A DNA stretch of 32,000 nt from positions 1,230,001-1,262,000 of the forward strand of contig NZ_LT906458.1 in the NCBI RefSeq assembly GCF_900187275.1, read 5' to 3'. Below are positions 7,272 to 21,812 of the stretch, piece after piece. The position numbers were made by a program, and so were the translations under genes. Source of the stretch: Pasteurella multocida. Its GTDB lineage: Bacteria; Pseudomonadota; Gammaproteobacteria; Enterobacterales; Pasteurellaceae. A model generated the notes under the pieces. The model did no database searches. It worked only from the letters and a program-made list of their open reading frames with translations, and was not told the DNA's origin. Position 1 is the stretch's first letter. Each line of letters begins with the position of its first letter.

Positions 7272-7973
7272 ATGACAATCGAACAAAATTTAGCACAAAT
7301 TCAACAAAATATTCAGCACGCGGTCCAACAAGCCAAGCGCCCAGAAAGTGCGGTCAAATTACTCGCTGTTTTAAAAACCAAACCCGTTGAAGATATCTAT
7401 CAAGCCTATCAAGCCGGACAAACCGCGTTTGGCGAAAACTATGTACAAGAAGGCGTGGAAAAAATCCAGTATTTTGCCCAAAAAAATATCCCTCTTGAAT
7501 GGCATTTCATCGGTCCGCTTCAATCAAATAAAACCAAATTAGTGGCAGAACATTTTGACTGGATGCAAACGCTCGACCGCAAAAAAATCGCCGACCGCCT
7601 CAACGAGCAGCGCCCACATTATAAAAAACCACTGAATGTATTAATCCAAATTAACATCAGCGATGAAGACAGCAAATCTGGCATTCAACCCAACGAAATG
7701 CTTGATCTAGCAAAACAGATCCAAAACCTACCGCACTTATGCCTCCGCGGCTTAATGGCTATCCCCGCCCCCACCGACGATCTTGCCACACAAGAACAAG
7801 CATTCACCCAAATGCACAGCTTATTTGAACAACTCAAACAAGCTTTACCCAATGCAAAAATTGATACGCTTTCAATGGGGATGACTGATGATATGGCGAG
7901 CGCCATTCAATGTGGTTCAACAATGGTAAGAATTGGGACAGCAATTTTTGGGGCAAGGGATTATTCGAAATAA
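7272..7973 (+). CDS. yggS: PLP-homeostasis protein, YggS/PROSC family
   Basis: MTIEQNLAQIQQNI...LLAVLKTKP (PLP-lysine context)...FGENYVQE...HFIGPLQSNK match YggS. The track start at 7233 is a TTG that adds 13 residues not supported by homology. Confidence 0.9.
   Translation: MTIEQNLAQIQQNIQHAVQQAKRPESAVKLLAVLKTKPVEDIYQAYQAGQTAFGENYVQEGVEKIQYFAQKNIPLEWHFIGPLQSNKTKLVAEHFDWMQTLDRKKIADRLNEQRPHYKKPLNVLIQINISDEDSKSGIQPNEMLDLAKQIQNLPHLCLRGLMAIPAPTDDLATQEQAFTQMHSLFEQLKQALPNAKIDTLSMGMTDDMASAIQCGSTMVRIGTAIFGARDYSK
7346..7354 (+). repeat. DNA uptake signal sequence core (Hin-type)
   Basis: Exact AAGTGCGGT. Confidence 0.8.
7730..7738 (-). repeat. DNA uptake signal sequence core (Hin-type)
   Basis: Exact ACCGCACTT (reverse complement of the core). 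This is the last USS before the island. Confidence 0.8.
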
Positions 7974-8014
7974 TCTCTTTTTCTTGATTTATAAATAAAG
8001 ATACTGTTCAAAAT

Positions 8015-8043
8015 TTGACAAATTAATAATGGCTTTTTATTAT
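8015..8043 (+). promoter_or_regulatory. Candidate sigma70 promoter for the first island operon
   Basis: TTGACA (8015..8020), N17, TATTAT (8038..8043), about 220 nt upstream of the 8265 ATG. Such matches arise easily by chance in AT-rich DNA. Confidence 0.3.
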
Positions 8044-8264
8044 TGATTGTATTAAAAATATACAAAAAAACATTATTAATAGAAATACAATCTCTGATAA
8101 CTATACTGATATAACCTAAATTATTCTTACCGTCAGATAGAGGAAAACTGTCTACATAACTCATAAAAGAAGAATCTCTATCAGGACTCATAAAATAACA
8201 TTGTTACTCTATGATATTTAATAATATTAAGGTGTATATCTACCAAATTTAAGATTCTCTAAAA

Positions 8265-9374
8265 ATGGTATTTATTATGTGTGGAAAAACAAAAAACTCA
8301 GCCTTGATTACAGCTCTAGCCTTCCACTATCAAGTATTGGTTGGCTTAGATAAATGTTTTAAATTAAAAGAAGGAGAGAGTATCTTTTTTGAAAAAGATG
8401 GCGATGTAAGTTTAGTTGGACAAAATGATTCATCATCACTACAAATGGAGATAAAAAATTACTCAGATAGTTTAACTGATAATCATCTAAACTTCTGGAA
8501 AACATTAAAAAATTGGCTACAACCCGAGTTTAACCAAGCTAAATATGGCTACTTAATATTACACACAACACAACCTTTTGGTGTTTCATCTACCCTCAAA
8601 AATTGGAATACTATAGATATTGAAGAAAGACTCGAGCTGATCCGTAAAATCTGTTCTAAAAATGAATCGAGTACATCAGAAGTAGCAAATATACAAAAAG
8701 AAATTATTTCTTCTGACGAGCAATTACTAAGAAAAATACTCGGAAAAATTTATTTGTATACAATCGCAGATAATGGATATGAATTAATAGAAAAAATTAA
8801 ACGCGAATTAAAAGGAATACCTGACAATAATTTATCTTGTTATTTAAATGCGTTGGTTGGCTACCTATATGGAGAGTCAAAAAGTGCTTGTTGGGAAATA
8901 AAATACGAAAGATTCAAGGAGATTCTTATCCATCTTACATCTACCTATGCTCAAAAAACATTTACTTTCCCTAATTTTACTGGTCAATCTGCATCAGAAG
9001 ATGAAATTGATAAAAATAAAACTAAATTATTTGTAACAAAAATCCTAGATATCGACTATGAAGATGTATTGCCAGAAGCTATTGGTAATTGGTTAGAAGT
9101 TGTCAATTCATTAATGCTTGATTTAGATAACTCTCCTATATACCAAAATATGACTAATGATTATCAAAGACAATTAATATCTATGTTCAAAAGTCGATTC
9201 TCTACTGCGAGTCGTAATAAACACAACCCAAAAGATTTATACGATAAGGTAATAGGAACTCCCCCTTCTAGTATGAAAGATCAAGGTACCCCGCATCTAG
9301 CGTATAAAAATGGATTGCTACACCATGCAATGGATGATAGTTTACAAGGACTAAAATGGGATTGCTTAAAATGA
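8265..9374 (+). CDS. Effector of a Lamassu-type II / ABC-3C-like system: N-terminal Cap4/DUF4297-like PD-(D/E)xK nuclease, C-terminal part unassigned
   Basis: Residues 20-64 read FHYQVLVGL...IFFEKDGDVSL-x11-LQMEIKNY. This gives a YQ motif, then E43/D45/D47, then E62-x-K64 (nt 8391..8456), which is the pattern I associate with Cap4-nuclease/DUF4297 domains. It is the first gene of a three-gene operon with overlapping ORFs. Confidence 0.65.
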   Translation: MVFIMCGKTKNSALITALAFHYQVLVGLDKCFKLKEGESIFFEKDGDVSLVGQNDSSSLQMEIKNYSDSLTDNHLNFWKTLKNWLQPEFNQAKYGYLILHTTQPFGVSSTLKNWNTIDIEERLELIRKICSKNESSTSEVANIQKEIISSDEQLLRKILGKIYLYTIADNGYELIEKIKRELKGIPDNNLSCYLNALVGYLYGESKSACWEIKYERFKEILIHLTSTYAQKTFTFPNFTGQSASEDEIDKNKTKLFVTKILDIDYEDVLPEAIGNWLEVVNSLMLDLDNSPIYQNMTNDYQRQLISMFKSRFSTASRNKHNPKDLYDKVIGTPPSSMKDQGTPHLAYKNGLLHHAMDDSLQGLKWDCLK

Positions 9375-9799
9375 ATACTATCAATGCCTTATATTTCATA
9401 AAATATAATCCTTTTAAATATGCTAAATATATTTATAGTTTTTATAAAAGCTTAGAGCCTTACAATAATAACTTACTATTATCTCCTTTAATTATTCCAC
9501 TTTGCACCCATCCTACTTATTCTAAAAAGAAGATAACATCTAGAAGTACTTTATATACTATCTTTCAAGATAAGAAAGAGCTTTATGATCTACAAGAACG
9601 GGTTAATTATTTCAGAGAGTTAACATCAGAAAGCATTCAGTTTTGCCTAGCTAATGATTGGCTATACTTTGATTCAGAAAAACTATCTTTATATACTAAT
9701 GAAGTAGATATTGAAATTGAGCCTTTCCCTAAAAAATTAGGCGACTTATTAAAAGATTATTCCGTAGGAGAAATCTATTTTAATTTAGGAGTAAAATGA
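9356..9799 (+). CDS. Small middle component (LmuC / ABC-3C MC-like adaptor)
   Basis: 147 aa. AAGGA (9346..9350) lies 5 nt before the ATG at 9356. The ORF overlaps the upstream gene by 19 nt (alternative ATG at 9371 would give an ATGA overlap) and the downstream gene by 4 nt (ATGA at 9796..9799). The call rests only on size and position between effector and ATPase; I recognise no motif. Confidence 0.5.
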   Translation: MGLLKMNTINALYFIKYNPFKYAKYIYSFYKSLEPYNNNLLLSPLIIPLCTHPTYSKKKITSRSTLYTIFQDKKELYDLQERVNYFRELTSESIQFCLANDWLYFDSEKLSLYTNEVDIEIEPFPKKLGDLLKDYSVGEIYFNLGVK

Positions 9800-11805
9800 T
9801 GAAAACATTAATTCATGAAATTGGAATTGTAGATATTAGAGATTATTTACATAGAGTAAAATTAAAAGAAGGATTAAATGTAATAACAGGAAAATCATCA
9901 ACAGGGAAAAGTGCACTAATTGAAATTTTTGATTATTGTTTCGCCAGTTCTAAAAGTAACATACCTAAAGGAGTTATAACAGAGTCAGCAACATTATATT
10001 ATCTTGTCTTACAAATTAATCAGTTATTTTTTGTGTTAGGTAGAGAAGCCAACTCTAGTAAGTGCTTTTTTAAGATTGAAAATAGCAATCCTTCCGATAA
10101 GTTAGGATCTAATTACTTTGATAATAATCATTTCTTATCACTTAATAATTATAAGAATAAACTCAATGAAATATTTATTGATATTAATGATGTTGATGAG
10201 TCTGCTATCACTGTAGAATACAGAGGAAAAAAATCGCCCACCCCATCTATTCGTAGCTTTATGTCATTAATTTTACAACATCAAAATTTAATAGCTAATA
10301 AGCATGCTATTTTTTATAGATTTGATGAAAAGGAGAAAAGAGAACAGGTCATATCCCACATGAAAATATTTCTTGGATTTGTTGATCAAGAATTTTATAT
10401 TCTATCGCAACGTAAAGAAAAAATCGAAATGGAAATAAGAAGGATAATTAGAGAAAATAATATACTCAGTAAAAACCTAGAAGGAAAAAAGTATGAATTA
10501 AAAGAAAGATTAAAGATTTTTTATTCAGTTATTGGAGTTGATGAAAAAATATTATCTATTGATGAGGTTATTTCAGATCCAATTAATTCAAAAATAAAAT
10601 TAGACAATACCATTCTAGCTCAGAATATAAACCACACATCAGATAATTTAAATATACATTATAATAAATTAATAAAAGAAAGAGATAGCGAAATTTCAAA
10701 ACTTAGAGAACTACAAAGAAGAAAAACAGCTATAGAAAAAACCCTAGAGGACAGGGAAGAGTTTTCTAAAAACATTGAACGTTCTTATTTCCCAGAAAGT
10801 ATAACTATTGCTAAAACAGTTTGTCCGCTCTGTTACTCCGACAATAATAAGCTAACAGAAAGAGCTAAACAGCTTGAACAAGCAATTAAAATTTTATCAG
10901 AAGATTTTCAGTTTAGTAATGGGATTACTTCTGAATTAGAAATATCATTAAATAAAACAAAAGAGGAAATAACAAATAAAAGTAACATTATAAAAAAATT
11001 AAATCGTGAGATATTAGATATAAGAACAAAAAACAAAGAACTATCTGATAAGATTAGCTTTAATGAACAAGTATTAATGAAAAAAATAGAAATATTTTTC
11101 TTATTAGATATGTTATCATCCTTCAAAAAGATAGATACAAGTGAAAAAGAAACATATCAAAATGAGCTTGAAGATATAAAGCAAAAATTAAAATTATACA
11201 ATATTGAAAATAGAGTTATTGAAGCAAATAGCAGAATTAATATAATCATGAAGGAAATTGGTTCAAAATTTGATTTCGAAACGAGCTACCAACCAATAAA
11301 TCTAAAATTTTCTCTAGATAGCTTTGATTTATTTCATCAAGACAATAAAAAAGGAAATATTTATTTAAGAACCATGGGGAGTGGTGCCAACTGGTTATAT
11401 TGTCATATTACACTATTTCTTGCTCTACATCGATATTTTATAGAACTAGACCATAAAGGAATAAATTGTTCAATTCCCTCTCTTCTATTTTTAGATCAAC
11501 CAACTCAAGTATATTTTCCTAACTTTAAATTTGATAAGAGTCAAGAATTTAATCAAAATATGATTAAAGAATTGGAACACAATCCTGAAACTTTTGATGA
11601 AGATATTAAATCCGTAGAGAATTTATTTAAGCAACTAGCCATATACTGTGATGAATTAAAAAATGAATTTGGTTTTTCTCCTCAAATTATTGTGACAGAT
11701 CATGCTGATAATCTGAACTTAGGAAATAAGTTTAATTTTGAGGATTTTGTTAACGGAAATAGATGGAGAACTAGAGGATTAATAGAGCCTATACCTAATA
11801 TTTAA
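9796..11805 (+). CDS. Rad50/SMC-like ABC ATPase with long coiled-coil insert (LmuB / DUF3732 / DdmC-like)
   Basis: 669 aa. Motifs: Walker A GKSSTGKS (res 32-39, nt 9889..9912), signature-like MGSGAN (res 527-532), Walker B LLFLDQP (D567), and H-loop VTDHAD (H636). Heptad-like K/E/I/L-rich sequence spans about residues 200-500, with CPLC at 343-346. AGGAG lies 4 nt before the ATG. Confidence 0.8.
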   Translation: MMKTLIHEIGIVDIRDYLHRVKLKEGLNVITGKSSTGKSALIEIFDYCFASSKSNIPKGVITESATLYYLVLQINQLFFVLGREANSSKCFFKIENSNPSDKLGSNYFDNNHFLSLNNYKNKLNEIFIDINDVDESAITVEYRGKKSPTPSIRSFMSLILQHQNLIANKHAIFYRFDEKEKREQVISHMKIFLGFVDQEFYILSQRKEKIEMEIRRIIRENNILSKNLEGKKYELKERLKIFYSVIGVDEKILSIDEVISDPINSKIKLDNTILAQNINHTSDNLNIHYNKLIKERDSEISKLRELQRRKTAIEKTLEDREEFSKNIERSYFPESITIAKTVCPLCYSDNNKLTERAKQLEQAIKILSEDFQFSNGITSELEISLNKTKEEITNKSNIIKKLNREILDIRTKNKELSDKISFNEQVLMKKIEIFFLLDMLSSFKKIDTSEKETYQNELEDIKQKLKLYNIENRVIEANSRINIIMKEIGSKFDFETSYQPINLKFSLDSFDLFHQDNKKGNIYLRTMGSGANWLYCHITLFLALHRYFIELDHKGINCSIPSLLFLDQPTQVYFPNFKFDKSQEFNQNMIKELEHNPETFDEDIKSVENLFKQLAIYCDELKNEFGFSPQIIVTDHADNLNLGNKFNFEDFVNGNRWRTRGLIEPIPNI

Positions 11806-11873
11806 TAAACTAAATATAAACACTTTCACAGTATAATGCTTTAATAGCTCATTTATTTTCACTAAAACACAAA

Positions 11874-12434
11874 ATGAACTCAGAATTAAAACAAGATCTC
11901 ACGGAATTTTTACGCCTATCATTAGTCGATGATGAATTTATCGATCAATATATCGACGATATTACATCCCTTTTTGAAGAGCAGGGGGAATGGGCTGATG
12001 AGTATGTGTATTGGCAAGAAAAAGGGATTTTGCCAGAAGATCCTGAACACCAATATTATGATGAGTATTTCGACTGGGATGAAAATGCATTTGTTGTGGA
12101 TGGGAAAAGTTACCCAAGCCTGAGTTTGGCAGATATTCTCGAACAACAAGCCCTTTCTAAATTGACTGATTGGAAATTCGATGCGGAAGAATTGGAATAT
12201 GCGGTCAATAGTATGCTGACCAATAAAATCAAGATCCAATGCCCCGAAGAAACCTATAATGATGCACTCTACCCTTACGTTCAACAAGCACTTGCCCCAC
12301 AAAATTATACCCTTTGTAATTATTGGAACGGCAATGACAGCTGTTTATTTATGATTTTCTCTTTTGAGGAAGAGTGTATTCGAGAGATTGCTGGCAAGTG
12401 CAATATTTCAATTTGTGCGGTTGATGAAGTATAG
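11874..12434 (+). CDS. Hypothetical highly acidic protein (no family assigned)
   Basis: 186 aa with 41 D+E versus 10 K+R (hand count) and many W/Y/F. TATAAT at 11832..11837 lies 37 nt upstream, but there is no obvious SD. GC is visibly higher than in the neighbouring island genes. Confidence 0.55.
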
Positions 12435-12577
12435 TGTAGTTTAGTATTGCATCTATAGCACTCGCCATCAATGAGATCGACAGTGTAAAGAATTGGAAGG
12501 CTATTTTTCGCGCGAGGAATTATGCCAAATAAATATAAAATAAACATTATATTAATAAAAAAATAAGGAGAAATAAT

Positions 12578-13849
12578 ATGCAACCAGAACAAAAAGAAAC
12601 CGAAGAATCTATAAAAATCACATTTCTTTCTACAGATATTCCAAATAAGGCTCCTATCAATTTAAGTACTATAAAAGATCCAGACAAACTCCAAGAATAT
12701 AAAAACGTACTTCAAATATCACTTAATAAAATTTTAGACGCTGAAAATATTATTGTTTTAGCTGGTTCAGGCACTTCTTTGACATTCAATACTTCACAAA
12801 ATCACCCCGCTCCAAGTATGGCTGACCTGTGGGATTATTGCAAAGAGAAAAATGCTAGAGTTTTTAATGAGATTGAGACATATACAAATTACAATGATTT
12901 TGCTGAAAAATGGACTGATAAACAAGGGCAAGAACATATTTCAAAGGATATTGAGCTTTTGCTGTCACGCTGTGATACTTTTTTGTCTTTACAAAATTTA
13001 TCTACTCATCGATTACAGCAACTAAAAAAATTTATTAAAGACGCGAAGTTAGAAATACTAAAACAAACTAACTTCACAGGAAAAATCTCAGACCCCAAAA
13101 ACTGGGAACATCATAACAAACTACTAAGGGTCTTAGGAAAAAGGCAACCTAAACAAAAGCGCTTAAAACTATTCACTACTAACTATGATTTAGCATTTGA
13201 AACCGCAGCATCTAACACTGGAATGATTGTAATCGATGGTTTTGAATACGGTAGACCATATCGCTTTAACCCCGCATGGTTTCATTATGATATTGTGCAT
13301 AAAACTCAAGCTTCAGATAAAGCAAATTCTTATCTTCCCAATGTCTTCCATCTTTATAAAATCCATGGTTCTGTAGATTGGTTGAGAACAGAGCAAGGTA
13401 TTCAAAAAAGAATTTCGGATTCTCAAGAAGGAGAACCAGTCATTATTTATCCAAGTAGTACTAAATATCAAACCTCTTATGAATCTCCCTACCTAGATAT
13501 GATGTCCAGCTTTTTAGAAGCAGTCCAAAAACCTAAAACAGCAATTTTATGTCTTGGATTTGGTTTTAATGATAAACATATAAATAATGCGATTACAATG
13601 GCACTGCGTACAAATCCAGAATTACTACTCATGGTGAGTACTCGTTCGTTTTTTGATGAAAAAGGCTCTTTTAATAAAGATATTCGAGAATTACTGAAAA
13701 AAGCAGTTGCAGCTGGCGATTCAAGAATCACATTAATAGACTGTGATTTTGCTACATTCGTAGAACAATTACCAGAAAGAAATAAACCTACGCCAGAAGA
13801 ACAAATTCTTCAGTTCTTCCAAAAATTTAATACGGGAGAAAATAAATGA
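12578..13849 (+). CDS. SIR2-family NADase-like protein (SIR2 partner of a SIR2-HerA defence pair)
   Basis: 423 aa. Motifs: IIVLAGSGTSL (Rossmann G-x-G), FTTNYDLAFE (N202) and YKIHGSVDW (H263), the defence-type SIR2 motifs. A strong SD AAGGAG (12565..12570) lies 7 nt before the ATG. Confidence 0.85.
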   Translation: MQPEQKETEESIKITFLSTDIPNKAPINLSTIKDPDKLQEYKNVLQISLNKILDAENIIVLAGSGTSLTFNTSQNHPAPSMADLWDYCKEKNARVFNEIETYTNYNDFAEKWTDKQGQEHISKDIELLLSRCDTFLSLQNLSTHRLQQLKKFIKDAKLEILKQTNFTGKISDPKNWEHHNKLLRVLGKRQPKQKRLKLFTTNYDLAFETAASNTGMIVIDGFEYGRPYRFNPAWFHYDIVHKTQASDKANSYLPNVFHLYKIHGSVDWLRTEQGIQKRISDSQEGEPVIIYPSSTKYQTSYESPYLDMMSSFLEAVQKPKTAILCLGFGFNDKHINNAITMALRTNPELLLMVSTRSFFDEKGSFNKDIRELLKKAVAAGDSRITLIDCDFATFVEQLPERNKPTPEEQILQFFQKFNTGENK

Positions 13850-15588
13850 GTAATGAATGGTTTTCACCATATGATTTAAAAAGACGCATAGGAAGTTTAA
13901 TTGAAATATCTGCAACTGAAGCAAAAATAAACCTTACTAAAGCCGGAACGGGAGAACAAGTATGGCTATTGGGAAACCGTATTCCCATTGGAGAGGTTAA
14001 TGAGTTTATTTTTATTGATTGTGGGCAAACATCTATTTTAGGAAGAATGATTCGAGTATGGTTAGAAAATGGTGAACGTCTTAGCGTTGATAATTTAGAT
14101 GAAAATTATGCTAATAATAACCCTATTGGCTTAGTTCAACTATTGGTTAGTGTTGATGTAGAAACAGGATTTAATCATAGAGGAATTAGACAATACCCTA
14201 AATTAGGCGCTCAAATTTATTCTGCTCATCCAAATTTAGTTTCTCTTTTAGCAGAAGGGAAATTAGCTAGTGATAATAATGAATTACAACTACCAATTGC
14301 TGAAATTCCTAATGATTCATCTATTACAATTCATCTTACTCCCGAAAAATTATTTGCTCGCCATTGTGCTATTTTAGGTTCTACTGGCGGAGGGAAAAGC
14401 TATACGATGGCAAATATAATTAATAATGTAAAAGAAAATAGAGGAAAAATATTATTATTAGATGCAACAGGAGAATATGAAAATTTACTTTGTGAAAGCT
14501 ATTATGTGGGAGAACATCCTCAAACTAAAGAGGATGACAAAAATAAAGTGACATACCCGCATTGGATGTTTACTGATTCAGATATAAGAGCTTTATTAAG
14601 ACCATCTGCTGGAAGCCAAGCACCAAAATTAGAAGAAGCTATTAGAAGTTTGAAAATAGTGCACTACCTCAACAGAAATCCAGAAATGAAAACTAAATAT
14701 GCTCTGTCTATACAAAATCAAGTGAATTTAGAGAAATTGGAGAAACTTAAAAAGCCATTCGAAGATATAATACAATCAATAACGTCCCCTTTTTCAGATA
14801 TTCCATGGACATTCCATGCATTGGCAGAGCAGATCATTCAAGAATGTGTATATCCAACAGGAGGGACATATCAAACTCCAGATCCCACTAAATGGGGAAA
14901 AAGAGCGGATAATGATATTGGATATTGTCTAAATCTAATTTCTCGCATTAAGGCTATGCAAAATAATCCTCACTTAAAATGGATGTTAGATAGCGATCCG
15001 AAGCTGACTAAGATACCTGATATCATAGATAATCTATGCAAAAATCAAACAGATCCAATAATACGGTTTGATCTATCTTTTGTTCCATTTGAAGAAAATG
15101 CAAGGGAAATATTAGTTAATACCATCGGTCGTAAATTATTAGATTGTGCTCGCAAAGGTGATATTAGCTATGAAAATCCATTGCTTGTTTTTATTGATGA
15201 ATCTCATCAATTTTTAAATAAATCTATTGGTGATGACATCAGCAAAATGAATCTTACCGCTTTTGGAGATATTGCAAAAGAAGGGAGAAAATATGGTTTA
15301 AATCTAGTGATGGCAACACAGCGACCAAGAGATATTCCAGAAGATGTTTTAAGTCAAATTGGGACATTGATTGTTCATCGATTAACTAATGAGAAAGATC
15401 AGGAAATTGTAAAGAAAGCAGTTGGCTCCATCGATAATCGCTCAGCTGCTTTTTTACCTGTACTCGGGCAAGGAGAGGCCCTTTTACTTGGGGTTGATTT
15501 TCCTTTTCCGATGAAAGTAAAAATCAAAGTGCCTCAAGTCGCCCCTTTATCTAGAAGTGCTTCATTTTCTAAAGTGTGGTCTTCCTGA
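13846..15588 (+). CDS. HerA/FtsK-like hexameric ATPase (HerA partner of SIR2-HerA)
   Basis: 580 aa. It has a HAS-barrel-like N-terminus, Walker A GSTGGGKS (K184, nt 14377..14400), Walker B LLVFIDESHQF (D451-E452, nt 15181..15201) and ATQRPRDI. An ATGA start/stop overlap with the SIR2 gene sits at 13846..13849. Confidence 0.88.
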   Translation: MSNEWFSPYDLKRRIGSLIEISATEAKINLTKAGTGEQVWLLGNRIPIGEVNEFIFIDCGQTSILGRMIRVWLENGERLSVDNLDENYANNNPIGLVQLLVSVDVETGFNHRGIRQYPKLGAQIYSAHPNLVSLLAEGKLASDNNELQLPIAEIPNDSSITIHLTPEKLFARHCAILGSTGGGKSYTMANIINNVKENRGKILLLDATGEYENLLCESYYVGEHPQTKEDDKNKVTYPHWMFTDSDIRALLRPSAGSQAPKLEEAIRSLKIVHYLNRNPEMKTKYALSIQNQVNLEKLEKLKKPFEDIIQSITSPFSDIPWTFHALAEQIIQECVYPTGGTYQTPDPTKWGKRADNDIGYCLNLISRIKAMQNNPHLKWMLDSDPKLTKIPDIIDNLCKNQTDPIIRFDLSFVPFEENAREILVNTIGRKLLDCARKGDISYENPLLVFIDESHQFLNKSIGDDISKMNLTAFGDIAKEGRKYGLNLVMATQRPRDIPEDVLSQIGTLIVHRLTNEKDQEIVKKAVGSIDNRSAAFLPVLGQGEALLLGVDFPFPMKVKIKVPQVAPLSRSASFSKVWSS

Positions 15589-15591
15589 TCC

Positions 15592-15620
15592 GATGACGCT
15601 CGTCAAAGGCGAGCGCCATC
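15592..15620 (+). terminator. Hairpin immediately after the HerA stop (possible terminator or island boundary)
   Basis: gatgacgctcg / tcaaagg / cgagcgccatc forms an 11-bp stem with one A-C mismatch, but the following T-tract is weak. GC content returns to core-like levels here. Confidence 0.3.
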
Positions 15621-15713
15621 CATTTCTATTAATAGATTACTCACAAACTCTTCCCTTGCCTTTTCCCCAATTCCCTCTAAACTAACCCCATTTTTCACTT
15701 TCAACAAAAAGCA

Positions 15714-16553
15714 ATGCACACACCCCATATTTACCTCGGCACAGGCGGTTATAGCGACACAGATTTAATCGGGACGCTGTATCCTTTTGGCACAGATAAA
15801 AGCGAGTTTTTGGCAGTTTATAGCCAACACTATGATGCGATTGAAATCAACAGCACCTTTCATGCGCCGATTGGTGCGAAATCGTTGCTAGGGATGGTGG
15901 AAAAGGCGCAAGGGCGGTTGCAGTTTTCGGTGAAATTGCATCAAGATTTTAGTCATAAACGTACCGCCACAAAAGAAGATGCAAGAGCCTTTTTAGCCGC
16001 ATTACAACCGTTAAAAGATCAGGATTGCTTAGCGAATTTATTTATTCAGTTTCCGATAAACTTTGAACGAACACCTGCCAATCGTTATTATCTTGCTGAA
16101 CTCGTTTCTTGGTTTCAAGAGGAAGTGTTAGCCATTGAATTTCGCCATCCGAGTTGGCATAACCAATCTGTGTTGGACTATTTTCGAGGTAAAGAAAAGC
16201 TGATTTGGTGCAATGTGGATTATCCGCAAAATATTGGTTTGCCTGCTTTTCAATTTTATGCGAATCAACGTACGGCATATTTACGCTTGCACGGTCGCAA
16301 TCCGAATTGGTGGCAAGCGCAATCGGCACAGGAACGACACGATTACCGTTACAATGACACGGAATTGCAAAATTTAGCCAATCTGCTAAATCAGTATAGA
16401 AACGAATTTGACCAGTTGTATATCTATTTTCAAAATACCACGAAAAGCCACTCTTTCTACAACATTGAGCAATTGAAAGCCTATTTGGCAGAATATGGTT
16501 TTGAAGTGAAACCCAAGCCCGAGTTTTTAACCGAGCGGCAGAGTTTGTTTTAG
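15714..16553 (+). CDS. DUF72 family protein (YecE-like)
   Basis: 279 aa. IYLGTGGYSD...YDAIEINSTFHAP...AIEFRHPSW...YLRLHGRN...YIYFQNT match the DUF72 pattern. The C-terminal ...QSLF resembles E. coli YecE as I remember it. Confidence 0.82.
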   Translation: MHTPHIYLGTGGYSDTDLIGTLYPFGTDKSEFLAVYSQHYDAIEINSTFHAPIGAKSLLGMVEKAQGRLQFSVKLHQDFSHKRTATKEDARAFLAALQPLKDQDCLANLFIQFPINFERTPANRYYLAELVSWFQEEVLAIEFRHPSWHNQSVLDYFRGKEKLIWCNVDYPQNIGLPAFQFYANQRTAYLRLHGRNPNWWQAQSAQERHDYRYNDTELQNLANLLNQYRNEFDQLYIYFQNTTKSHSFYNIEQLKAYLAEYGFEVKPKPEFLTERQSLF

Positions 16554-16591
16554 TGGGGAACGTGCGTTTTTTGACAAGAAAAATAACCGAA

Positions 16592-16600
16592 AAGTGCGGT
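16592..16600 (+). repeat. DNA uptake signal sequence core (Hin-type), intergenic
   Basis: Exact AAGTGCGGT followed by catttttgaaaac, between the convergent yecE-like and rnhA genes. This is the first USS after the island. Confidence 0.8.
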
Positions 16601-16616
16601 CATTTTTGAAAACGTT

Positions 16617-17081
16617 TTATTCAGGTTGATAGCCCACATCCTCTAAAGTGGGATTTTCTGCGCCCGCTTTAGCGAGTTGATCGCAGATTTCATTTTCAAT
16701 GTGTCCAGAATGCCCTTTGACCCATTGCCAATTGATGTGGTGACGTTGGATAGCTTGATCGAGCTGTATCCATAAATCTTGGTTCTTAACGGGCTTGCCG
16801 GTGCTGGCTTTCCAGTTATTTTTTTTCCAATTAAAGATCCATTTGGTGATGCCATTTTTCATATATTGGCTATCACTGTGTAACGTCACTGAGCAAGGCT
16901 CTTTGAGAGTATTTAAGGCTTCAATCACCGCACGCAATTCCATACGGTTATTAGTTGTTAAAAAATAACCTGCTGAAATCTGTTTTTCATGTTGCTTATA
17001 ACGTAACAATACGCCGATCCCACCCGGTCCGGGATTGCCTAAACAGGAACCATCCGTAAAAATTTCAATTTGTTTTTGCAT
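16617..17081 (-). CDS. rnhA: Ribonuclease HI
   Basis: 154 aa. [21 protein letters not shown] and [12 protein letters not shown] match RNase H1. It is divergent from dnaQ, as in E. coli. Confidence 0.95.
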
Positions 17082-17149
17082 AATCTTTGTTACAATTCTT
17101 CACTAAACCAAGATCATAACCGAAATTAACTGAAAGAGATAGAAAGAAA

Positions 17150-17911
17150 ATGACCCCAGTGAATCAACCGACTCGCCAAATTGTACTGGATACCGAAACT
17201 ACGGGGATGAACCAATTTGGTGCACATTATGAAGGGCATTGTATTATTGAAATCGGGGCTGTTGAGATGATCAATCGACGCCTCACGGGCAATAATTTCC
17301 ATATTTATATCAAACCAAATCGCCCCGTCGATCCCGATGCGATCAAAGTACACGGTATCACCGATGAAATGTTGGCGGATAAACCCATGTTTAATGAGGT
17401 CGCACAGCAATTTATTGATTATATTCAAGGGGCTGAATTGCTGATCCATAATGCGCCCTTCGACGTGGGCTTTATGGATTATGAATTTAAAAAGCTAAAC
17501 TTAAACATCAATACTGATGAAATTTGTATGGTAACGGATACCTTACAAATGGCACGCCAAATGTACCCCGGTAAACGTAATAGCTTAGATGCACTTTGTG
17601 ATCGTTTAGGTATTGATAACAGCAAGCGAACCCTACACGGTGCGTTACTGGATGCGGAGATCTTAGCGGATGTGTACCTCACGATGACAGGGGGACAAAC
17701 CAGCCTATTTGATGAAAATGAACCAGAAATTGCTGTTGTCGCCGTCCAAGAACAAATCCAAAGTGCGGTGGCTTTTTCACAAGACTTAAAACGCCTGCAA
17801 CCCAATGCCGATGAACTACAAGCCCATCTCGATTACCTCCTCTTACTTAATAAAAAGAGCAAAGGCAATTGCTTATGGGAAAAGCGTTTAGCGGAATTGA
17901 AAACACATTAA
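17150..17911 (+). CDS. dnaQ: DNA polymerase III epsilon (3'-5' proofreading exonuclease)
   Basis: Exo motifs present: VLDTETTG (ExoI), HNAPFDVGF (ExoII) and HGALLDAEILADVY (ExoIII). Confidence 0.95.
   Translation: MTPVNQPTRQIVLDTETTGMNQFGAHYEGHCIIEIGAVEMINRRLTGNNFHIYIKPNRPVDPDAIKVHGITDEMLADKPMFNEVAQQFIDYIQGAELLIHNAPFDVGFMDYEFKKLNLNINTDEICMVTDTLQMARQMYPGKRNSLDALCDRLGIDNSKRTLHGALLDAEILADVYLTMTGGQTSLFDENEPEIAVVAVQEQIQSAVAFSQDLKRLQPNADELQAHLDYLLLLNKKSKGNCLWEKRLAELKTH
17761..17769 (+). repeat. DNA uptake signal sequence core (Hin-type)
   Basis: Exact AAGTGCGGT. Confidence 0.8.
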
Positions 17912-17960
17912 TAAATTCGTTCATTGATTGAGCAGCTGAGGGCAAATATGAAAAAAAAAG

Positions 17961-17989
17961 TTGACGAAAAGCGGCTTGATCATTAATAT
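17961..17989 (+). promoter_or_regulatory. Candidate promoter for the tRNA-Asp pair
   Basis: TTGACG (17961..17966), N17, TAATAT (17984..17989). It is preceded by an A9 tract (UP-element-like) and followed by a GC-rich discriminator (acgcctcacc), 15 nt before the first tRNA. Confidence 0.55.
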
Positions 17990-18004
17990 ACGCCTCACCT
18001 GTGC

Positions 18005-18081
18005 GGAGTGGTAGTTCAGCTGGTTAGAATACCTGCCTGTCACGCAGGGGGTCGCGGGTTCGAGTCCCGTCCATTCCGCCA
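18005..18081 (+). tRNA. tRNA-Asp (GUC), copy 1
   Basis: 77 nt: GGAGTGGTAGTTCAGCTGGTTAGAATACCTGCCTGTCACGCAGGGGGTCGCGGGTTCGAGTCCCGTCCATTCCGCCA. It has a cloverleaf, anticodon loop CTGTCAC and an encoded CCA. Confidence 0.95.
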
Positions 18082-18096
18082 ATTTTATTCTACTAC

Positions 18097-18173
18097 GGAG
18101 CGGTAGTTCAGCTGGTTAGAATACCTGCCTGTCACGCAGGGGGTCGCGGGTTCGAGTCCCGTCCGTTCCGCCA
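18097..18173 (+). tRNA. tRNA-Asp (GUC), copy 2
   Basis: 77 nt, differing from copy 1 at two positions (5 and 68). It is near-identical to E. coli tRNA-Asp as I remember it. Confidence 0.97.
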
Positions 18174-18185
18174 ACGAATTTCAAC

Positions 18186-18217
18186 AAAAAGCCACTTTTA
18201 AAAAGTGGCTTTTTGTT
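18186..18217 (+). terminator. Rho-independent terminator after the tRNA-Asp pair
   Basis: aaaaagccactttt / taa / aaagtggcttttt, followed by a T-run. Confidence 0.75.
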
Positions 18218-18292
18218 TCTCAGGCATCAGCTTGCTCAAGTTGGCTATTTAAGCCGATTTCTTGTACATTTCTCATCTTTGACAAAATCCGC

Positions 18293-18298
18293 TATAAT
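18293..18298 (+). promoter_or_regulatory. Candidate -10 element for der
   Basis: Consensus TATAAT lies 60 nt upstream of the der ATG. The best -35 at 17-nt spacing is the weak TTCTCA. Confidence 0.35.
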
Positions 18299-18358
18299 GA
18301 TGCCATTTTTGACTGCGCTATGAACCCATAGGCAGAAATACTGAATAAGAGGTTTTTT

Positions 18359-19891
18359 ATGACAACGCCTGTAGTGGCTCTTGTTGGTCGCCCAAATGTG
18401 GGAAAATCAACATTATTTAATCGTCTAACCCGTACGCGTGATGCGTTGGTGGCGGATTTTCCCGGCTTAACGCGCGACCGTAAATATGGTCAAGCCAATA
18501 TCGCAGGTTATGATTTTATTGTGATCGATACTGGTGGTATTGATGGTACAGAAGAAGGCGTGGAAGAAAAAATGGCGGAGCAATCCTTGCTTGCCATTGA
18601 AGAAGCCGATGTGGTGCTGTTTTTAGTGGATGCGCGTGCAGGCTTAACCTCTGCGGATATTGGTATCGCAAACTATTTACGCCAACGCCAAAACAAAATC
18701 ACGGTAGTCGTTGCCAATAAAACCGATGGCATTGATGCGGACTCCCATTGCGCCGAGTTCTATCAATTAGGTTTAGGTGAAGTCGAACAAATTGCTGCCT
18801 CGCAAGGTCGTGGCGTTTCTGCCTTAATGGAACAAGTACTGGCACCGATTGCGGAAAAAATGAATGCCGAAAGTCCTGAACAAAGTGCGGTAGAAAATAC
18901 CGATGTTTCTGAAACCGGCGAACAAGACGAGTGGGATCACGACTTCGACTTTGCTAATGAAGAAGATACCGCCTTGTTAGATGACGCCATTGCGGAAGAA
19001 CTGGAAGCACAAGATAAAAATATCAAAATCGCCATTGTTGGGCGTCCAAATGTGGGTAAATCGACCTTAACAAATCGCATTTTAGGTGAAGATCGCGTGG
19101 TCGTGTATGACTTACCGGGGACAACGCGTGACAGTATTTATATCCCGATGGAACGCGATGGTCAGCATTACACCATCATTGACACCGCAGGGGTACGTAA
19201 ACGGGGTAAAGTCCATTTAGCAGTGGAAAAATTTTCGGTCATCAAAACCTTACAAGCGATTCAAGATGCCAATGTGGTGTTATTAACTATTGATGCGCGT
19301 GAAGGCGTGTCAGATCAAGACTTATCTTTACTGGGTTTTATACTCAATGCAGGGCGTTCATTGGTCATCGTAGTGAATAAATGGGATGGTTTAAATCAAG
19401 ACATTAAAGATCAAGTCAAATCTGAACTGGATCGCCGTTTAGATTTCATTGATTTCGCTCGAGTGCATTTTATTTCTGCTCTACACGGTAGCGGCGTCGG
19501 CAACCTGTTTGATTCGATTAAAGAAGCCTATGCCTGTGCGACACAAAAAATGACCACATCCATGTTAACCCGTATTTTACAAATGGCAACGGATGAGCAT
19601 CAGCCGCCGATGATGGGTGGTCGTCGAATTAAATTAAAATACGCACACCCGGGCGGTTATAATCCACCCATTATTGTGGTGCATGGTAACCAAATGGATA
19701 AATTACCCGATTCATATAAACGTTATTTATCCAATTACTATCGTCGTAGTTTGAAAATTATTGGTTCGCCAATCCGCTTATTATTCCAAGAAGGAAATAA
19801 CCCATTTGCAGGTAAACGGAATAAATTGACACCAAATCAATTACGCAAACGCAAACGCTTAATGAAGTTTATTAAAAAATCGAAGCGTTAA
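18359..19891 (+). CDS. der: Ribosome-associated GTPase Der (EngA)
   Basis: 510 aa with two GTPase domains, each carrying a [11 protein letters not shown]-loop (res 10-19 and 228-237). An acidic linker separates them, and the C-terminus is KH-like and basic. Confidence 0.95.
18883..18891 (+). repeat. DNA uptake signal sequence core (Hin-type)
   Basis: Exact AAGTGCGGT. Confidence 0.8.
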
Positions 19892-19954
19892 TCAATCTAC
19901 ATGGCGCCCTGTCGATCGGCGCCATATTCTCTGTGTTTTTAAAGGACAACTAGC

Positions 19955-20344
19955 ATGGCGAATAAAAAAACCTTACTCCTTTTTCCACTCATTACGCAGT
20001 GTATTTTTTCACTCTTTTTGCCTTTTTTTAATGCCTTCCATCTCAAAGGTCTAACGGATGTTTTTATTCTAACCACGGTGCCAGCTTTTTTATTTTCTTT
20101 GGTTTGTGTGTATTATCAGTTTCATCAACGTAATCTGCTTCAGATCGCGTTTTTCTCAGGTACAATCAGCTTCTTTTATACTCTAACTATGTTATCTTGC
20201 TTCCTGTTCAATGAGACATTCCGCGAGCCTATGTCATTATGGGAACAGAGTTTAGCGCTGCTGTTTTATGCGTTAATGTTTGCCTTACCGAGTATGATGT
20301 ATGCCATGGTAGTACTACGTCTTTTTTTAAGAAAAGCCCCTTAA
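19955..20344 (+). CDS. Small integral membrane protein, hypothetical
   Basis: 129 aa with about 4 hydrophobic helices. AAGGA lies 8 nt upstream of the ATG, and a strong terminator follows the gene. Confidence 0.55.
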   Translation: MANKKTLLLFPLITQCIFSLFLPFFNAFHLKGLTDVFILTTVPAFLFSLVCVYYQFHQRNLLQIAFFSGTISFFYTLTMLSCFLFNETFREPMSLWEQSLALLFYALMFALPSMMYAMVVLRLFLRKAP

Positions 20345-20353
20345 TACACAAAC

Positions 20354-20386
20354 AAAAAGGCGCGGATGATGATACCGCGCCTTTTT
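20354..20386. terminator. Bidirectional rho-independent terminator
   Basis: aaaaaggcgcgg / atgatgata / ccgcgccttttt, with an A-run and a T-run on either side. It sits between the convergent membrane-protein gene (+) and ftsP (-). Confidence 0.75.
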
Positions 20387-20405
20387 GTTATACCTGTTAT
20401 ACCTG

Positions 20406-21812
20406 TTATTGCACAACCAATAGCCTGATACAGCCTTTATCTGCCAACATTAAATTAGCGGAGCCAAACAGGAAAGGATGATTATTCGATGACATATGTT
20501 CAAATTTTACTAAAATTTGGACTTTGCCGTTAATCAGCACACTGTCCTTCCATGCAACTTCACTTTGTTCTACTAGGGTGTCATTGATACTCTCGATAAG
20601 AAATTTCGCCCCTTGAATACGAAAGCCCATGATGCCATTTGCGGTTAACGTCCAACGCTCCGTTGTATTTAATTTAGCATTAGTCACCCGTTTCGGATCA
20701 AAGTGTTTATCATTCACCATGCCCGTATTCACATCAAAATGAAATTGGCGTTCTTGTACTACTTTATTACTCAAATTCGCCACAGCATCTGTGTTAAATT
20801 GTGGCTCAGCTTGTTTAGAAAAAACCGAGGCAAGTCCTTCAGGACGAAGCTCTAACACGGTATTGTCGACTAATTCATTTTCATCAGCGAAAAGTGAAGT
20901 AAAAACATGTAAGAAATCCCGTTTTTCACCGGCAATCAAACGCACACTCTCACCTTCATTTAAATCAATTAACAATTCACTTCGTTCACTTGGCGCCAAC
21001 ACTATGGATTTCAAGACCTTAGCTTGTGGTAAGAAACCTTGATCTGAGGCGATCAAACGCATTTCGCGCTCATCATCTAAACGCAGTTCATAGTGGCGTG
21101 ACAATGAGGCATTCACTAAACGTAATCGCACCCAACCTCGTGGCACATTCACATAAGGCGCCTCTTGCCCATTCACAAATAAACGATTACCAAAAAGTGC
21201 GGTCTGATTTGGTTGAAATAATTGCAATCCCTGATTATTTAAACGCATATCTTGCAAAATCAAAGGAATATCATTCACACCATATTTATGCGGTAAGCCG
21301 GATTTCAAACTCTGTTCGTCTTCAATAATCCACATCCCCGCTAAGCCGCGATAGGTTTGATAAGCTGAATTAGCGAGAGATACTGAATGATACCAACAGG
21401 TAGATGCCGCTTGAGTAATTGGAATAATCGGTGACCAAGTTTCTTTAGGTTGCAAAACGCGTCCCACACCGCCAAGTAATTCGCCACTCGCCTGCAAACC
21501 TTGAATCGACATGGATACGCCTTGTGGTAAATTATTGCGATAATTTAACTTAGCAAAGTCACCTTTACGAATTTTAATCGTTGGTCCTAAATAATGTCCA
21601 TTAAATCCCCACACCTCGACAGTTTTACCCATCTCTAATGGATACTGAACACTATCCAGACTTAAAAAAATTGGCTTACCACGTCGGGTTTCCAATAAGG
21701 GAGGAATACGTAAGGCTTGGCGTGTTGCAGCCAATAGAGAGGATGGCAAGGCTGAAAGTGCCGTGGCAATTAAACTGGTTTTGAAAAACTGTCGACGCGC
21801 CGGATTATCCAT
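20406..21812 (-). CDS. ftsP: Cell division protein FtsP (SufI), Tat-exported multicopper-oxidase-like
   Basis: 468 aa with the twin-arginine signal [25 protein letters not shown] and cupredoxin-like repeats. I see no His-rich copper-site motifs. It lies directly downstream of plsC, as in E. coli. Confidence 0.85.
21195..21203 (+). repeat. DNA uptake signal sequence core (Hin-type)
   Basis: Exact AAGTGCGGT. Confidence 0.8.

Follow-up and report, generated by a model that had tools for sequence, protein, structure and literature searches.

Introduction

Does the AT-rich stretch that separates yggS from a DUF72 (YecE-like) gene in Pasteurella multocida represent a single defense island acquired in one step, or a site at which separate defense systems are exchanged one by one? 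The stretch occupies positions 7974-15620 of a 32,000-nt segment (contig NZ_LT906458.1, positions 1,230,001 to 1,262,000; herein referred to as the window, to which all coordinates refer unless a locus of a relative is named) that is 99.995% identical to CP008918.1. An initial annotation, prepared from the nucleotide sequence before any database had been searched, had described the stretch as one compact defense island without mobility genes, carrying two ATPase-plus-effector systems and one unknown gene. Here, we find that the interval consists of two adjacent cargo slots that vary independently of one another, the first filled in the window by a Lamassu system and the second by a SIR2-HerA pair, with a resident DUF6630 gene between them. 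We consider it very likely that the yggS-DUF72 interval as a whole is a two-slot defense hotspot free of mobility genes, in which cargo is swapped by recombination through the flanks.

Results and Discussion

Two Cargo Slots Are Divided by a Resident Gene

Six open reading frames (ORFs), all on the + strand, fill positions 8265-15588, and gene and domain calls made with the Pfam, NCBIfam, PADLOC, and PHROGs profile libraries confirm the arrangement that had been read from the sequence, namely six same-strand genes lodged between two housekeeping genes. The conserved left flank of slot 1 is yggS (7272-7973, + strand; pyridoxal phosphate-binding YggS family, TIGR00044 E 1.2e-98 and PF01168), and the conserved right flank is the DUF72 gene (15714-16553, + strand; PF01904 E 5e-48). 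We compared the yggS neighborhoods of 80 Pasteurellaceae genomes, together with genomes that encode identical or related proteins, and mapped the proteins of the window onto these loci (herein designated by L numbers). The gene thrA is syntenic with yggS in 80 Pasteurellaceae loci; synteny of yggS with DUF72 is limited to the Pasteurella sensu stricto group, and 1032 blocks of the assembly collection list a DUF72 protein identical to that of the window. The intact arrangement of the window recurs in most of the genomes read.

Slot 1 holds the Lamassu cassette, comprising lmuA, lmuC, and lmuB with their own 291-nt AT-rich leader (7974-11870, + strand; genes spanning 8265-11805). The slot is empty in two loci of Bisgaard Taxon 45 (L001 and L002) and in Pasteurella sp. 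PK-2025 (L003), where yggS and DUF6630 are 35-46 nt apart, and also in L090, a genome listed by NCBI as P. multocida with core genes 98% identical to those of the window, where the spacer is 30 nt long. Because these empty sites hold only a spacer of 30-46 nt, the Lamassu cassette can be delimited as exactly 7974-11870; where the slot is filled, the native yggS-DUF6630 spacer has been wholly replaced rather than split.

Slot 2 holds the SIR2-HerA cassette including its leader (~12460-15591, + strand; genes spanning 12578-15588). Homology to relatives that carry other cargo ends ~25 nt past the DUF6630 stop codon and returns at a conserved hairpin with a 13-bp stem (15592-15620, + strand), with which the conserved right flank of this slot begins. 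SIR2-HerA is the slot 2 cargo of most P. multocida, of the Taxon 45 strain L094, and of P. canis L096-L098; its place is taken by a PifA-like KAP NTPase (E 1e-59) in P. multocida L090, by a cyclic oligonucleotide-based anti-phage signaling system (CBASS) with a cyclase (E 4e-105) and a four-transmembrane effector in Bisgaard Taxon 46 (L004), by a Ser/Thr kinase (PD-T4-6/mad6-like) in Taxon 45 L001, by a HicA-like gene with an unknown gene in Taxon 45 L002, and by PAAR toxin and immunity cassettes in PK-2025 (L003). Since the last of these loci carries PAAR toxin genes, the hotspot is not restricted to anti-phage cargo. (The L003 cargo, at 11300-20699 of that locus, consists of repeated PAAR-domain toxin genes and small AT-rich genes whose products presumably confer immunity.) In two further genomes, P. 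canis L031 and P. oralis L061, metH follows yggS and DUF6630 is absent, with AT-rich cargo directly ahead of DUF72: Septu-like PtuA/PtuB (E 4e-172 and 1e-73) with RhuM/PDC-S05 in the former and an HNH protein in the latter. Counted over P. multocida, Bisgaard Taxa 45 and 46, PK-2025, P. canis, and P. oralis, the region from yggS past DUF6630 to DUF72 shows at least nine different states. The proposal that the interval is a variable defense site in this lineage is strengthened by this comparison of junctions, in which content was not conserved and both alternative cargos and an empty slot 1 were found.

The state of either slot does not predict that of the other. L004 combines Lamassu with CBASS, L094 and L096 carry SIR2-HerA without Lamassu, and all four slot combinations are seen. 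Wherever Lamassu is absent (L001-L003, L090, and L094), DUF6630 directly follows yggS. Because all four combinations occur, the DUF6630 gene (11874-12434, + strand; PF20335 E 2.6e-13) is a resident at the boundary of two independent slots, and is not itself cargo.

Were the block instead a single composite 7.6-kb island acquired as one unit, DUF6630 would be part of the cargo as a third unit, or an accessory of one of the systems. The common orientation of the six genes and the AT-richness of the whole stretch relative to the core fit such an origin, as does P. canis L096, which keeps DUF6630 beside SIR2-HerA despite a different left neighbor. However, L001-L003 and L090 have DUF6630 but neither system, the slots are found in all four combinations, and DUF6630 itself has a third-codon-position GC content (GC3) of 0.36 and a divergence near that of core genes. 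Moreover, the tract of high identity that the Lamassu cassette shares with Taxon 46 begins ~16 nt inside the yggS 3' end and stops at the DUF6630 start codon, and the SIR2-HerA cassettes of Aeromonas and Gallibacterium are free-standing two-gene units without DUF6630. Acquisition as one island is largely refuted by these observations, and we give it next to no credence. The narrower idea that DUF6630 is a third component of SIR2-HerA, which arose from the P. canis L096 locus, was rejected on the same Aeromonas and Gallibacterium cassettes and on the presence of DUF6630 beside five other cargos. The description of the block as one compact island accordingly has to be replaced by that of two cassettes split by DUF6630, with the hairpin at 15592-15620 assigned to the right flank; the two ATPase-plus-effector systems that it postulated are indeed there, as Lamassu and SIR2-HerA, whereas the unknown gene that it counted as cargo is the resident DUF6630.

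The DUF6630 protein is very acidic (isoelectric point 4.05; 41 D+E vs 10 K+R), and its structural model is confident (predicted local distance difference test score, pLDDT, 93.5), with no significant structural neighbor in the PDB or BFVD. The family is small: at E<=0.001, a search of 1.84 billion proteins yields 45 representatives, of which most are the C-terminal domain of DUF7821-DUF6630 proteins of ~360 aa. The copy in the Taxon 45 strain L094 is a pseudogene with a premature stop (TGG to TAG). A 126-aa antisense ORF within DUF6630 (11922-12302, - strand) recurs in L001 and is most likely a spurious shadow ORF.

Slot 1 Carries a Short, Cap4-Nuclease Lamassu System

The first three genes of the block encode a short, type II (LmuC-containing), Cap4-nuclease Lamassu, an assignment made on the basis of the PADLOC and Pfam matches, the matches to solved structures, the LmuA motif, and the form of the LmuB Walker B. 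The effector gene lmuA (8265-9374, + strand) encodes a Cap4-type PD-(D/E)xK nuclease with a Lamassu C-terminal domain (PADLOC LmuA E 2.5e-41). The protein has no match in Pfam, in which the DUF4297 model remains below threshold (E 0.01); a profile built from 32 homologues matches the solved LmuA chains 9hqu_C and 9nxx_A, and an AlphaFold2 model (pLDDT 88.5) finds the solved LmuA 9hr5_C as its top fold match (E 2e-13), then 9nxx and 9uxi. Behind the LmuA chains (E 2e-13 to 1e-5) come the CBASS Cap4 structures 6vm5 (E 6e-5) and 6wam. E43, D45, D47, Q60, E62, and K64 are invariant in the 32 homologues, among them the PD-(D/E)xK-type residues D47, E62, and K64.

The middle component is lmuC (9356-9799, + strand; MC3, PF20131 E 6.9e-29, PADLOC LmuC E 1.6e-15), which shares 19 nt of coding sequence with lmuA and 4 nt with lmuB. 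Finally, lmuB (9796-11805, + strand) encodes an SMC/Rad50-like ATPase of 669 aa that is matched over its full length by PADLOC LmuB (E 2e-103), contains DUF3732 (E 1.4e-51), and has the solved homologues 9hqu_A and 9ny5_D (E ~1e-29). Its Walker A (Gx4GK[S/T]) is GKSSTGKS at 32 and its Walker B LLFLDQ at 563, the latter in the form that defines the LmuB of short-type Lamassu (hhhhD[Q/S/T/E]; PMC12663957); one CxxC zinc hook is present (C343-x-x-C346, CPLC). The three genes together show what characterizes a system of this type: an LmuB with ATPase motifs, a DUF3732 C-terminus, and a length of ~600-670 aa, a two-domain LmuA, and an LmuC beside both. A promoter-like site in the leader (8015-8043) matches 11 of 12 consensus positions.

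Systems of the same kind are DdmABC (Lamassu Vc-Cap4) of Vibrio cholerae and LmuACB of Salmonella enterica (9ny5, 9nxx, 9hqu, 9hr5, and 9uxh), with which the P. multocida system shares a Cap4-fold LmuA, an MC3-type LmuC, an SMC-like LmuB of ~650-670 aa with DUF3732, the Walker A and short-form Walker B, and the gene order A-C-B. The resemblance is distant, with LmuA identity to the solved systems only 14-19% and LmuB matching at E ~1e-29. Furthermore, V. cholerae LmuB lacks the CxxC zinc hook (PMC12663957), whereas P. multocida LmuB has one; given this difference from the V. cholerae Cap4 Lamassu, dimerization may differ as well. An A1B2C1 complex, LmuA tetramerization, and protection that depends on the ATPase and nuclease have been established for the V. 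cholerae and S. enterica homologues only (PMC12663957). By analogy with these, a dimer of LmuB together with LmuC would hold a single LmuA monomer in an inactive state until DNA ends or phage replication intermediates were recognized and ATP was hydrolyzed; LmuA, once released, could then tetramerize through its C-terminal domain, form an active Cap4 cleavage pocket, degrade DNA, and abort the infection (PMC12663957).

Slot 2 Carries a Distant SIR2-HerA Pair

Genes 5 and 6 of the block are a SIR2-HerA pair. The SIR2-family NADase effector gene (12578-13849, + strand) is matched by PADLOC SIR2 PDLC04075 (E 1.7e-197) and PF13289, and 8yhx_G, 8j4u_A, and 8w9l_A are solved homologues of its product. 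The catalytic residues lie in TTNYD (200-204) and KIHGS (261-265), which align with FTTNYDL and HGS of 8yhx_G and 8j4u_A; in the Paenibacillus SIR2 they are N163, D165, and H212 (PMC11472057). The second gene (13846-15588, + strand) encodes a HerA-family hexameric P-loop ATPase (PADLOC HerA PDLC04103 E 2e-290; PF01935 E 2.6e-22; PF05872 E 2e-10; solved homologues 8wiv, 8xau, and 8j4u_M) that has the HerA central and C-terminal domains and both Walker motifs (A, GSTGGGKS at 178; B, FIDE at 449). The two genes are adjacent and co-oriented, with the herA start overlapping the SIR2 stop by 4 nt, as expected of one operon.

The pair resembles the SIR2-HerA systems of Escherichia coli (8j4u/8su9), Paenibacillus sp. 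453MF (8w9l/8wld), and 8yhx in its SIR2-then-HerA operon with a 4-nt overlap, in the retained N/D/H motifs of SIR2 and Walker A and B of HerA, and in its close match to the subfamily models of PADLOC-DB. However, the P. multocida subfamily is distant from all of the solved complexes, and the proteins fall outside the NCBIfam equivalogs, SIR2 scoring 135.5 bits against a cut-off of 500 for SIR2_antiphage and HerA 165.4 against 800 for HerA_antiphage. Because these scores lie so far below the cut-offs, we assign the pair to a different subfamily from the equivalogs. This subfamily is widespread in Gammaproteobacteria (Pasteurellaceae, Aeromonas, and Vibrio), with 3901 proteins at E<=1e-50. In Aeromonas caviae (L099-L101, 3754-6734), hsdS and hsdR of a type I restriction-modification operon enclose a SIR2-HerA pair from this subfamily, with 69% identity in HerA.

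The E. coli SIR2-HerA systems have been divided into types I-III (PMC13434337). Assembly of a SIR2 ring with a HerA hexamer and depletion of NAD+ upon infection have been seen only in distant homologues (PMC11472057 and PMC11514289). Should the P. multocida proteins behave likewise, a SIR2 ring (dodecamer or tetradecamer) and a HerA hexamer would form a complex of ~1 MDa, in which assembly and infection would switch on NADase, ATPase, helicase, and nuclease activities and so deplete NAD+ (PMC11472057, PMC11514289, and PMC13434337).

Cargo Composition Differs from That of the Core Genome

The GC content of the block is 30.8%, against 41.5% for the remainder of the window, and the two ranges do not overlap: 1-kb windows outside the block have a mean GC of 0.415 (standard deviation 0.019) and a minimum of 0.376, whereas the highest value inside is 0.354. 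Measured against the window background, trinucleotide distance is 3-5 times greater inside the block (0.25-0.50) than outside (0.08-0.14). GC3 is 0.18-0.22 in lmuA, lmuC, lmuB, SIR2, and HerA, 0.42-0.43 in yggS and DUF72, and intermediate (0.364) in DUF6630. The exact Hin-type uptake signal sequence (USS; AAGTGCGGT) occurs 15 times in the window, against 0.18 times expected by chance, with two copies inside yggS (7346 and 7730) and one directly 3' of the DUF72 gene (16592); between 7739 and 16591 there are 0 of the 15 (binomial probability of 0/15 in the block, 0.017), and neither Hin-type nor Apl-type exact USS occur in the window's own cargo. 

No integrase or transposase domain was found in the block with any of the four libraries, no tRNA gene adjoins it (the nearest are two tRNA-Asp genes at 18005-18173, ~2.4 kb downstream), no flanking direct or inverted repeat is significant, and an Rfam scan of the island returned no non-coding RNA, its only matches being the downstream tRNAs. 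The tRNA-Asp(GTC) genes stand in tandem, and L083 and L084 have a third copy (~92 nt extra), so that copy number varies within the species. These results agree with what had been read by eye: the block is AT-rich and USS-free by windowed GC, GC3, trinucleotide distance, and USS scan, six of six hand counts of G+C (11, 10, 17, 18, 24, and 37 per 60) were exact on recount, and the library scans and repeat tests revealed none of the integrases, transposases, adjacent tRNAs, or flanking direct repeats whose absence had been reported. Profile searches likewise place five of the ORFs in defense families and none of the block genes in a housekeeping family. A horizontal origin of the block is supported by its deviation in GC, GC3, k-mer composition, and USS content, by the identity of its Lamassu cassette to that of Taxon 46, and by the step in identity at the cassette edges; the view that the block is anti-phage in character and free of mobility genes is supported as well.

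The Two Cassettes Have Different Histories

The Lamassu cassette is 95-99% identical to the copy in Taxon 46 (L004), compared with 80-89% for the flanks. At third codon positions, identity is 0.94-0.98 in lmuA, lmuC, and lmuB and 0.56-0.67 in thrA, yggS, DUF72, rnhA, and dnaQ. Because third-position identity in the cassette so exceeds that in the flanks, Lamassu has been exchanged between the P. multocida and Taxon 46 lineages recently, long after their divergence.

SIR2-HerA looks like an older resident than Lamassu. The third-position identity of HerA to the Taxon 45 and P. canis copies (0.75-0.79, vs 0.59-0.81 in the flanks) is closer to core levels, and HerA alleles are ~10% apart within P. 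multocida. Third-position identity of SIR2 is higher (~0.90), and this gap between SIR2 and HerA points to a mosaic history. At first and second positions, identity in SIR2 and HerA is 0.93-0.99, far above that at third positions, consistent with purifying selection on the pair.

These patterns bear on whether the block is functional defense at all, or instead consists of decaying remnants kept by drift, or of genes recruited to housekeeping. Damaged copies do occur, as lmuB is fragmented in L084 (4039-5982), SIR2 is split in two in L085 (6866-8136), and DUF6630 has its premature stop in L094, and the apparently long-term residence of SIR2-HerA also fits such a reading. Against this, the window's five defense genes retain their full length and their catalytic motifs, and start/stop overlaps couple them, the same intact arrangement is found in most genomes read, the excess of first- and second-position over third-position identity in SIR2 and HerA indicates purifying selection, and no profile assigns a gene of the block to a housekeeping family. 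The L084 pseudogenes were dropped as evidence of decay, since the 12 gap openings over 12.4 kb in that locus suggest that its frameshifts may be assembly errors. That the block has no defensive function is in our view highly unlikely.

Cargo Exchange Probably Proceeds through the Flanks

If the interval is a hotspot without mobility genes of its own, how does cargo enter and leave? We propose that it does so by homologous recombination through the conserved flanks, by which the whole intergenic spacer would be swapped without leaving a scar. This route is suggested by the absence of mobility genes, which extends to ±10 kb around the locus, by the absence of att-like repeats, by the complete replacement of the spacer, and by the absence of plasmid and phage copies: no close DNA copies of the cassettes were found on plasmids or phages, and none of their relatives on IMG/VR viral contigs, and a plasmid or phage vehicle was rejected on these grounds. 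Pasteurellaceae use USS-dependent natural transformation. DNA would probably be delivered by natural transformation or transduction, and transformation is a plausible delivery step in a USS-rich genome with USS in both flanks.

Alternatively, exchange could depend on a dedicated site- or structure-specific mechanism; a recombinase whose gene lies elsewhere and which recognizes the slot borders, hairpin included, would for instance explain why the Lamassu tract ends within ~16 nt of each cassette edge. The hairpin itself lends this some appeal. It has the form GATGxxxCTCGTC-loop-GxCGAGxxCCATy and lies at the point where homology resumes beneath four different cargos, in the window and at 12735-12763 of L090, 12959-12987 of L002, and 17356-17384 of L004, with partly compensatory changes and a folding energy of -17 to -22 kcal/mol (z -3.7 to -6.0); it is not a dispersed repeat, as each locus has one copy only. 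Additionally, prophage ends lie in the intergenic regions of the island in two strains. Yet the ends of the cargo lack conserved repeats or att-like cores (shuffled sequences are as similar in 20-80% of trials), slot 1 is without a hairpin, the ±10 kb around the locus encode no recombinase, and the prophage ends look Mu-like. The native spacer, moreover, is replaced whole, as expected with crossovers in the flanks, and repeated rounds of transfer would pare any co-transferred flank DNA back to the cassette. We therefore hold a dedicated mechanism of this sort to be highly unlikely. Apparent flanking repeats of slot 2, in which the left border seemed to contain a partial hairpin arm, were discarded because shuffles equaled them in 102-406 of 500 trials (direct) and 52-388 of 500 (reverse complement). 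One possible role for the hairpin is that of a terminator insulating the DUF72 gene that follows, although a strong T-tail is missing.

The two prophages deserve description in their own right. The L081 element (CP199472.1; 1-6798), which has tail and baseplate genes, lies between DUF6630 and SIR2, with its junction at window position 12511/12512, and that of L091 (GCA_029661885.1; 8752-15704) lies just past the hairpin, with its junction at 15635/15636. The end of the latter is Mu-like (TG..., with GCGCGATAAAT twice), and Mu-type phages transpose quasi-randomly. The L091 phage also encodes a protein of the Acb2/Tad1-hairpin family (9956-10180, - strand), a family of anti-CBASS/anti-Thoeris sponges.

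Several observations weigh against a hotspot fed by recombination in the flanks, or complicate it. The Lamassu tract shares almost no flank DNA beyond its edges, which is not what one recombination event would most simply be expected to yield, and the trimming of flanks by serial transfers could be the cause. Apl-type USS (ACAAGCGGT) occur in the slot 2 cargo of relatives, at 12409, 15115, 15258, and 17240 in L003 (four within its 9.4-kb PAAR/immunity cargo), at 17183 and 18200 in L031, and at 17405 in L004, in species whose core DNA uses the Hin-type; this suggests that the cargo concerned came from the Actinobacillus/Mannheimia-type USS clade, and its first entry into the present clade need not have involved Hin-USS-dependent uptake. 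SIR2-HerA still has a GC3 of ~0.2 and no USS, despite its apparently long residence. Finally, SIR2 and HerA score below the equivalog cut-offs and are distant from the solved complexes, so that details of their assembly may differ from those outlined above.

A more speculative reading assigns the slot borders a role of their own, either with the DUF6630 protein and the hairpin at 15592-15620 as parts of a precise, trans-acting cassette exchange or with DUF6630 as a modulator of the adjoining defense cassette. This would account for tract ends ~16 nt from the cassette edges and for the retention of DUF6630 at slot 2 in P. canis, but we judge it a long shot, and recombination through conserved flanks around a resident DUF6630 remains the explanation that we favor.

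A Small-Scale Counterpart of Known Defense Hotspots

The nearest known counterparts of the locus are the "core defense hotspots" (cDHS) of Pseudomonas aeruginosa, variable sites bounded by conserved genes for which recombination in the flanks has been proposed (PMC10250203). Defense hotspots flanked by core genes in other species are close to it as well. The P. multocida interval shares with these a fixed site between core genes, strain-variable content rich in anti-phage systems (with the PAAR cargo of L003 as the exception), GC below that of the genome, and the lack of a consistent mobile-element marker such as integrases, transposases, or att repeats. It differs in scale, with 3.1-3.9 kb per slot compared with a median of 26 kb, in layout, being made up of two slots for one system each on either side of a single resident gene, of which slot 2 can also hold toxin/immunity cassettes, as in L003, and in its host family, with its USS-dependent natural transformation. 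A search of the searchable literature library yielded no paper on Lamassu, SIR2-HerA, or this hotspot in P. multocida. The families of both systems are well studied, and hotspots of this type are known; no new mechanism of defense is revealed here. The locus instead provides a clean, small-scale map of a defense hotspot in an important veterinary pathogen, with exact junctions, an empty site, and at least eight alternative cargos. Such a map is of use for the annotation of Pasteurellaceae genomes and for the prediction of phage susceptibility, for instance in phage therapy against P. multocida, and the locus offers a natural system in which to study the swapping of defense cassettes without mobility genes in naturally transformable bacteria.

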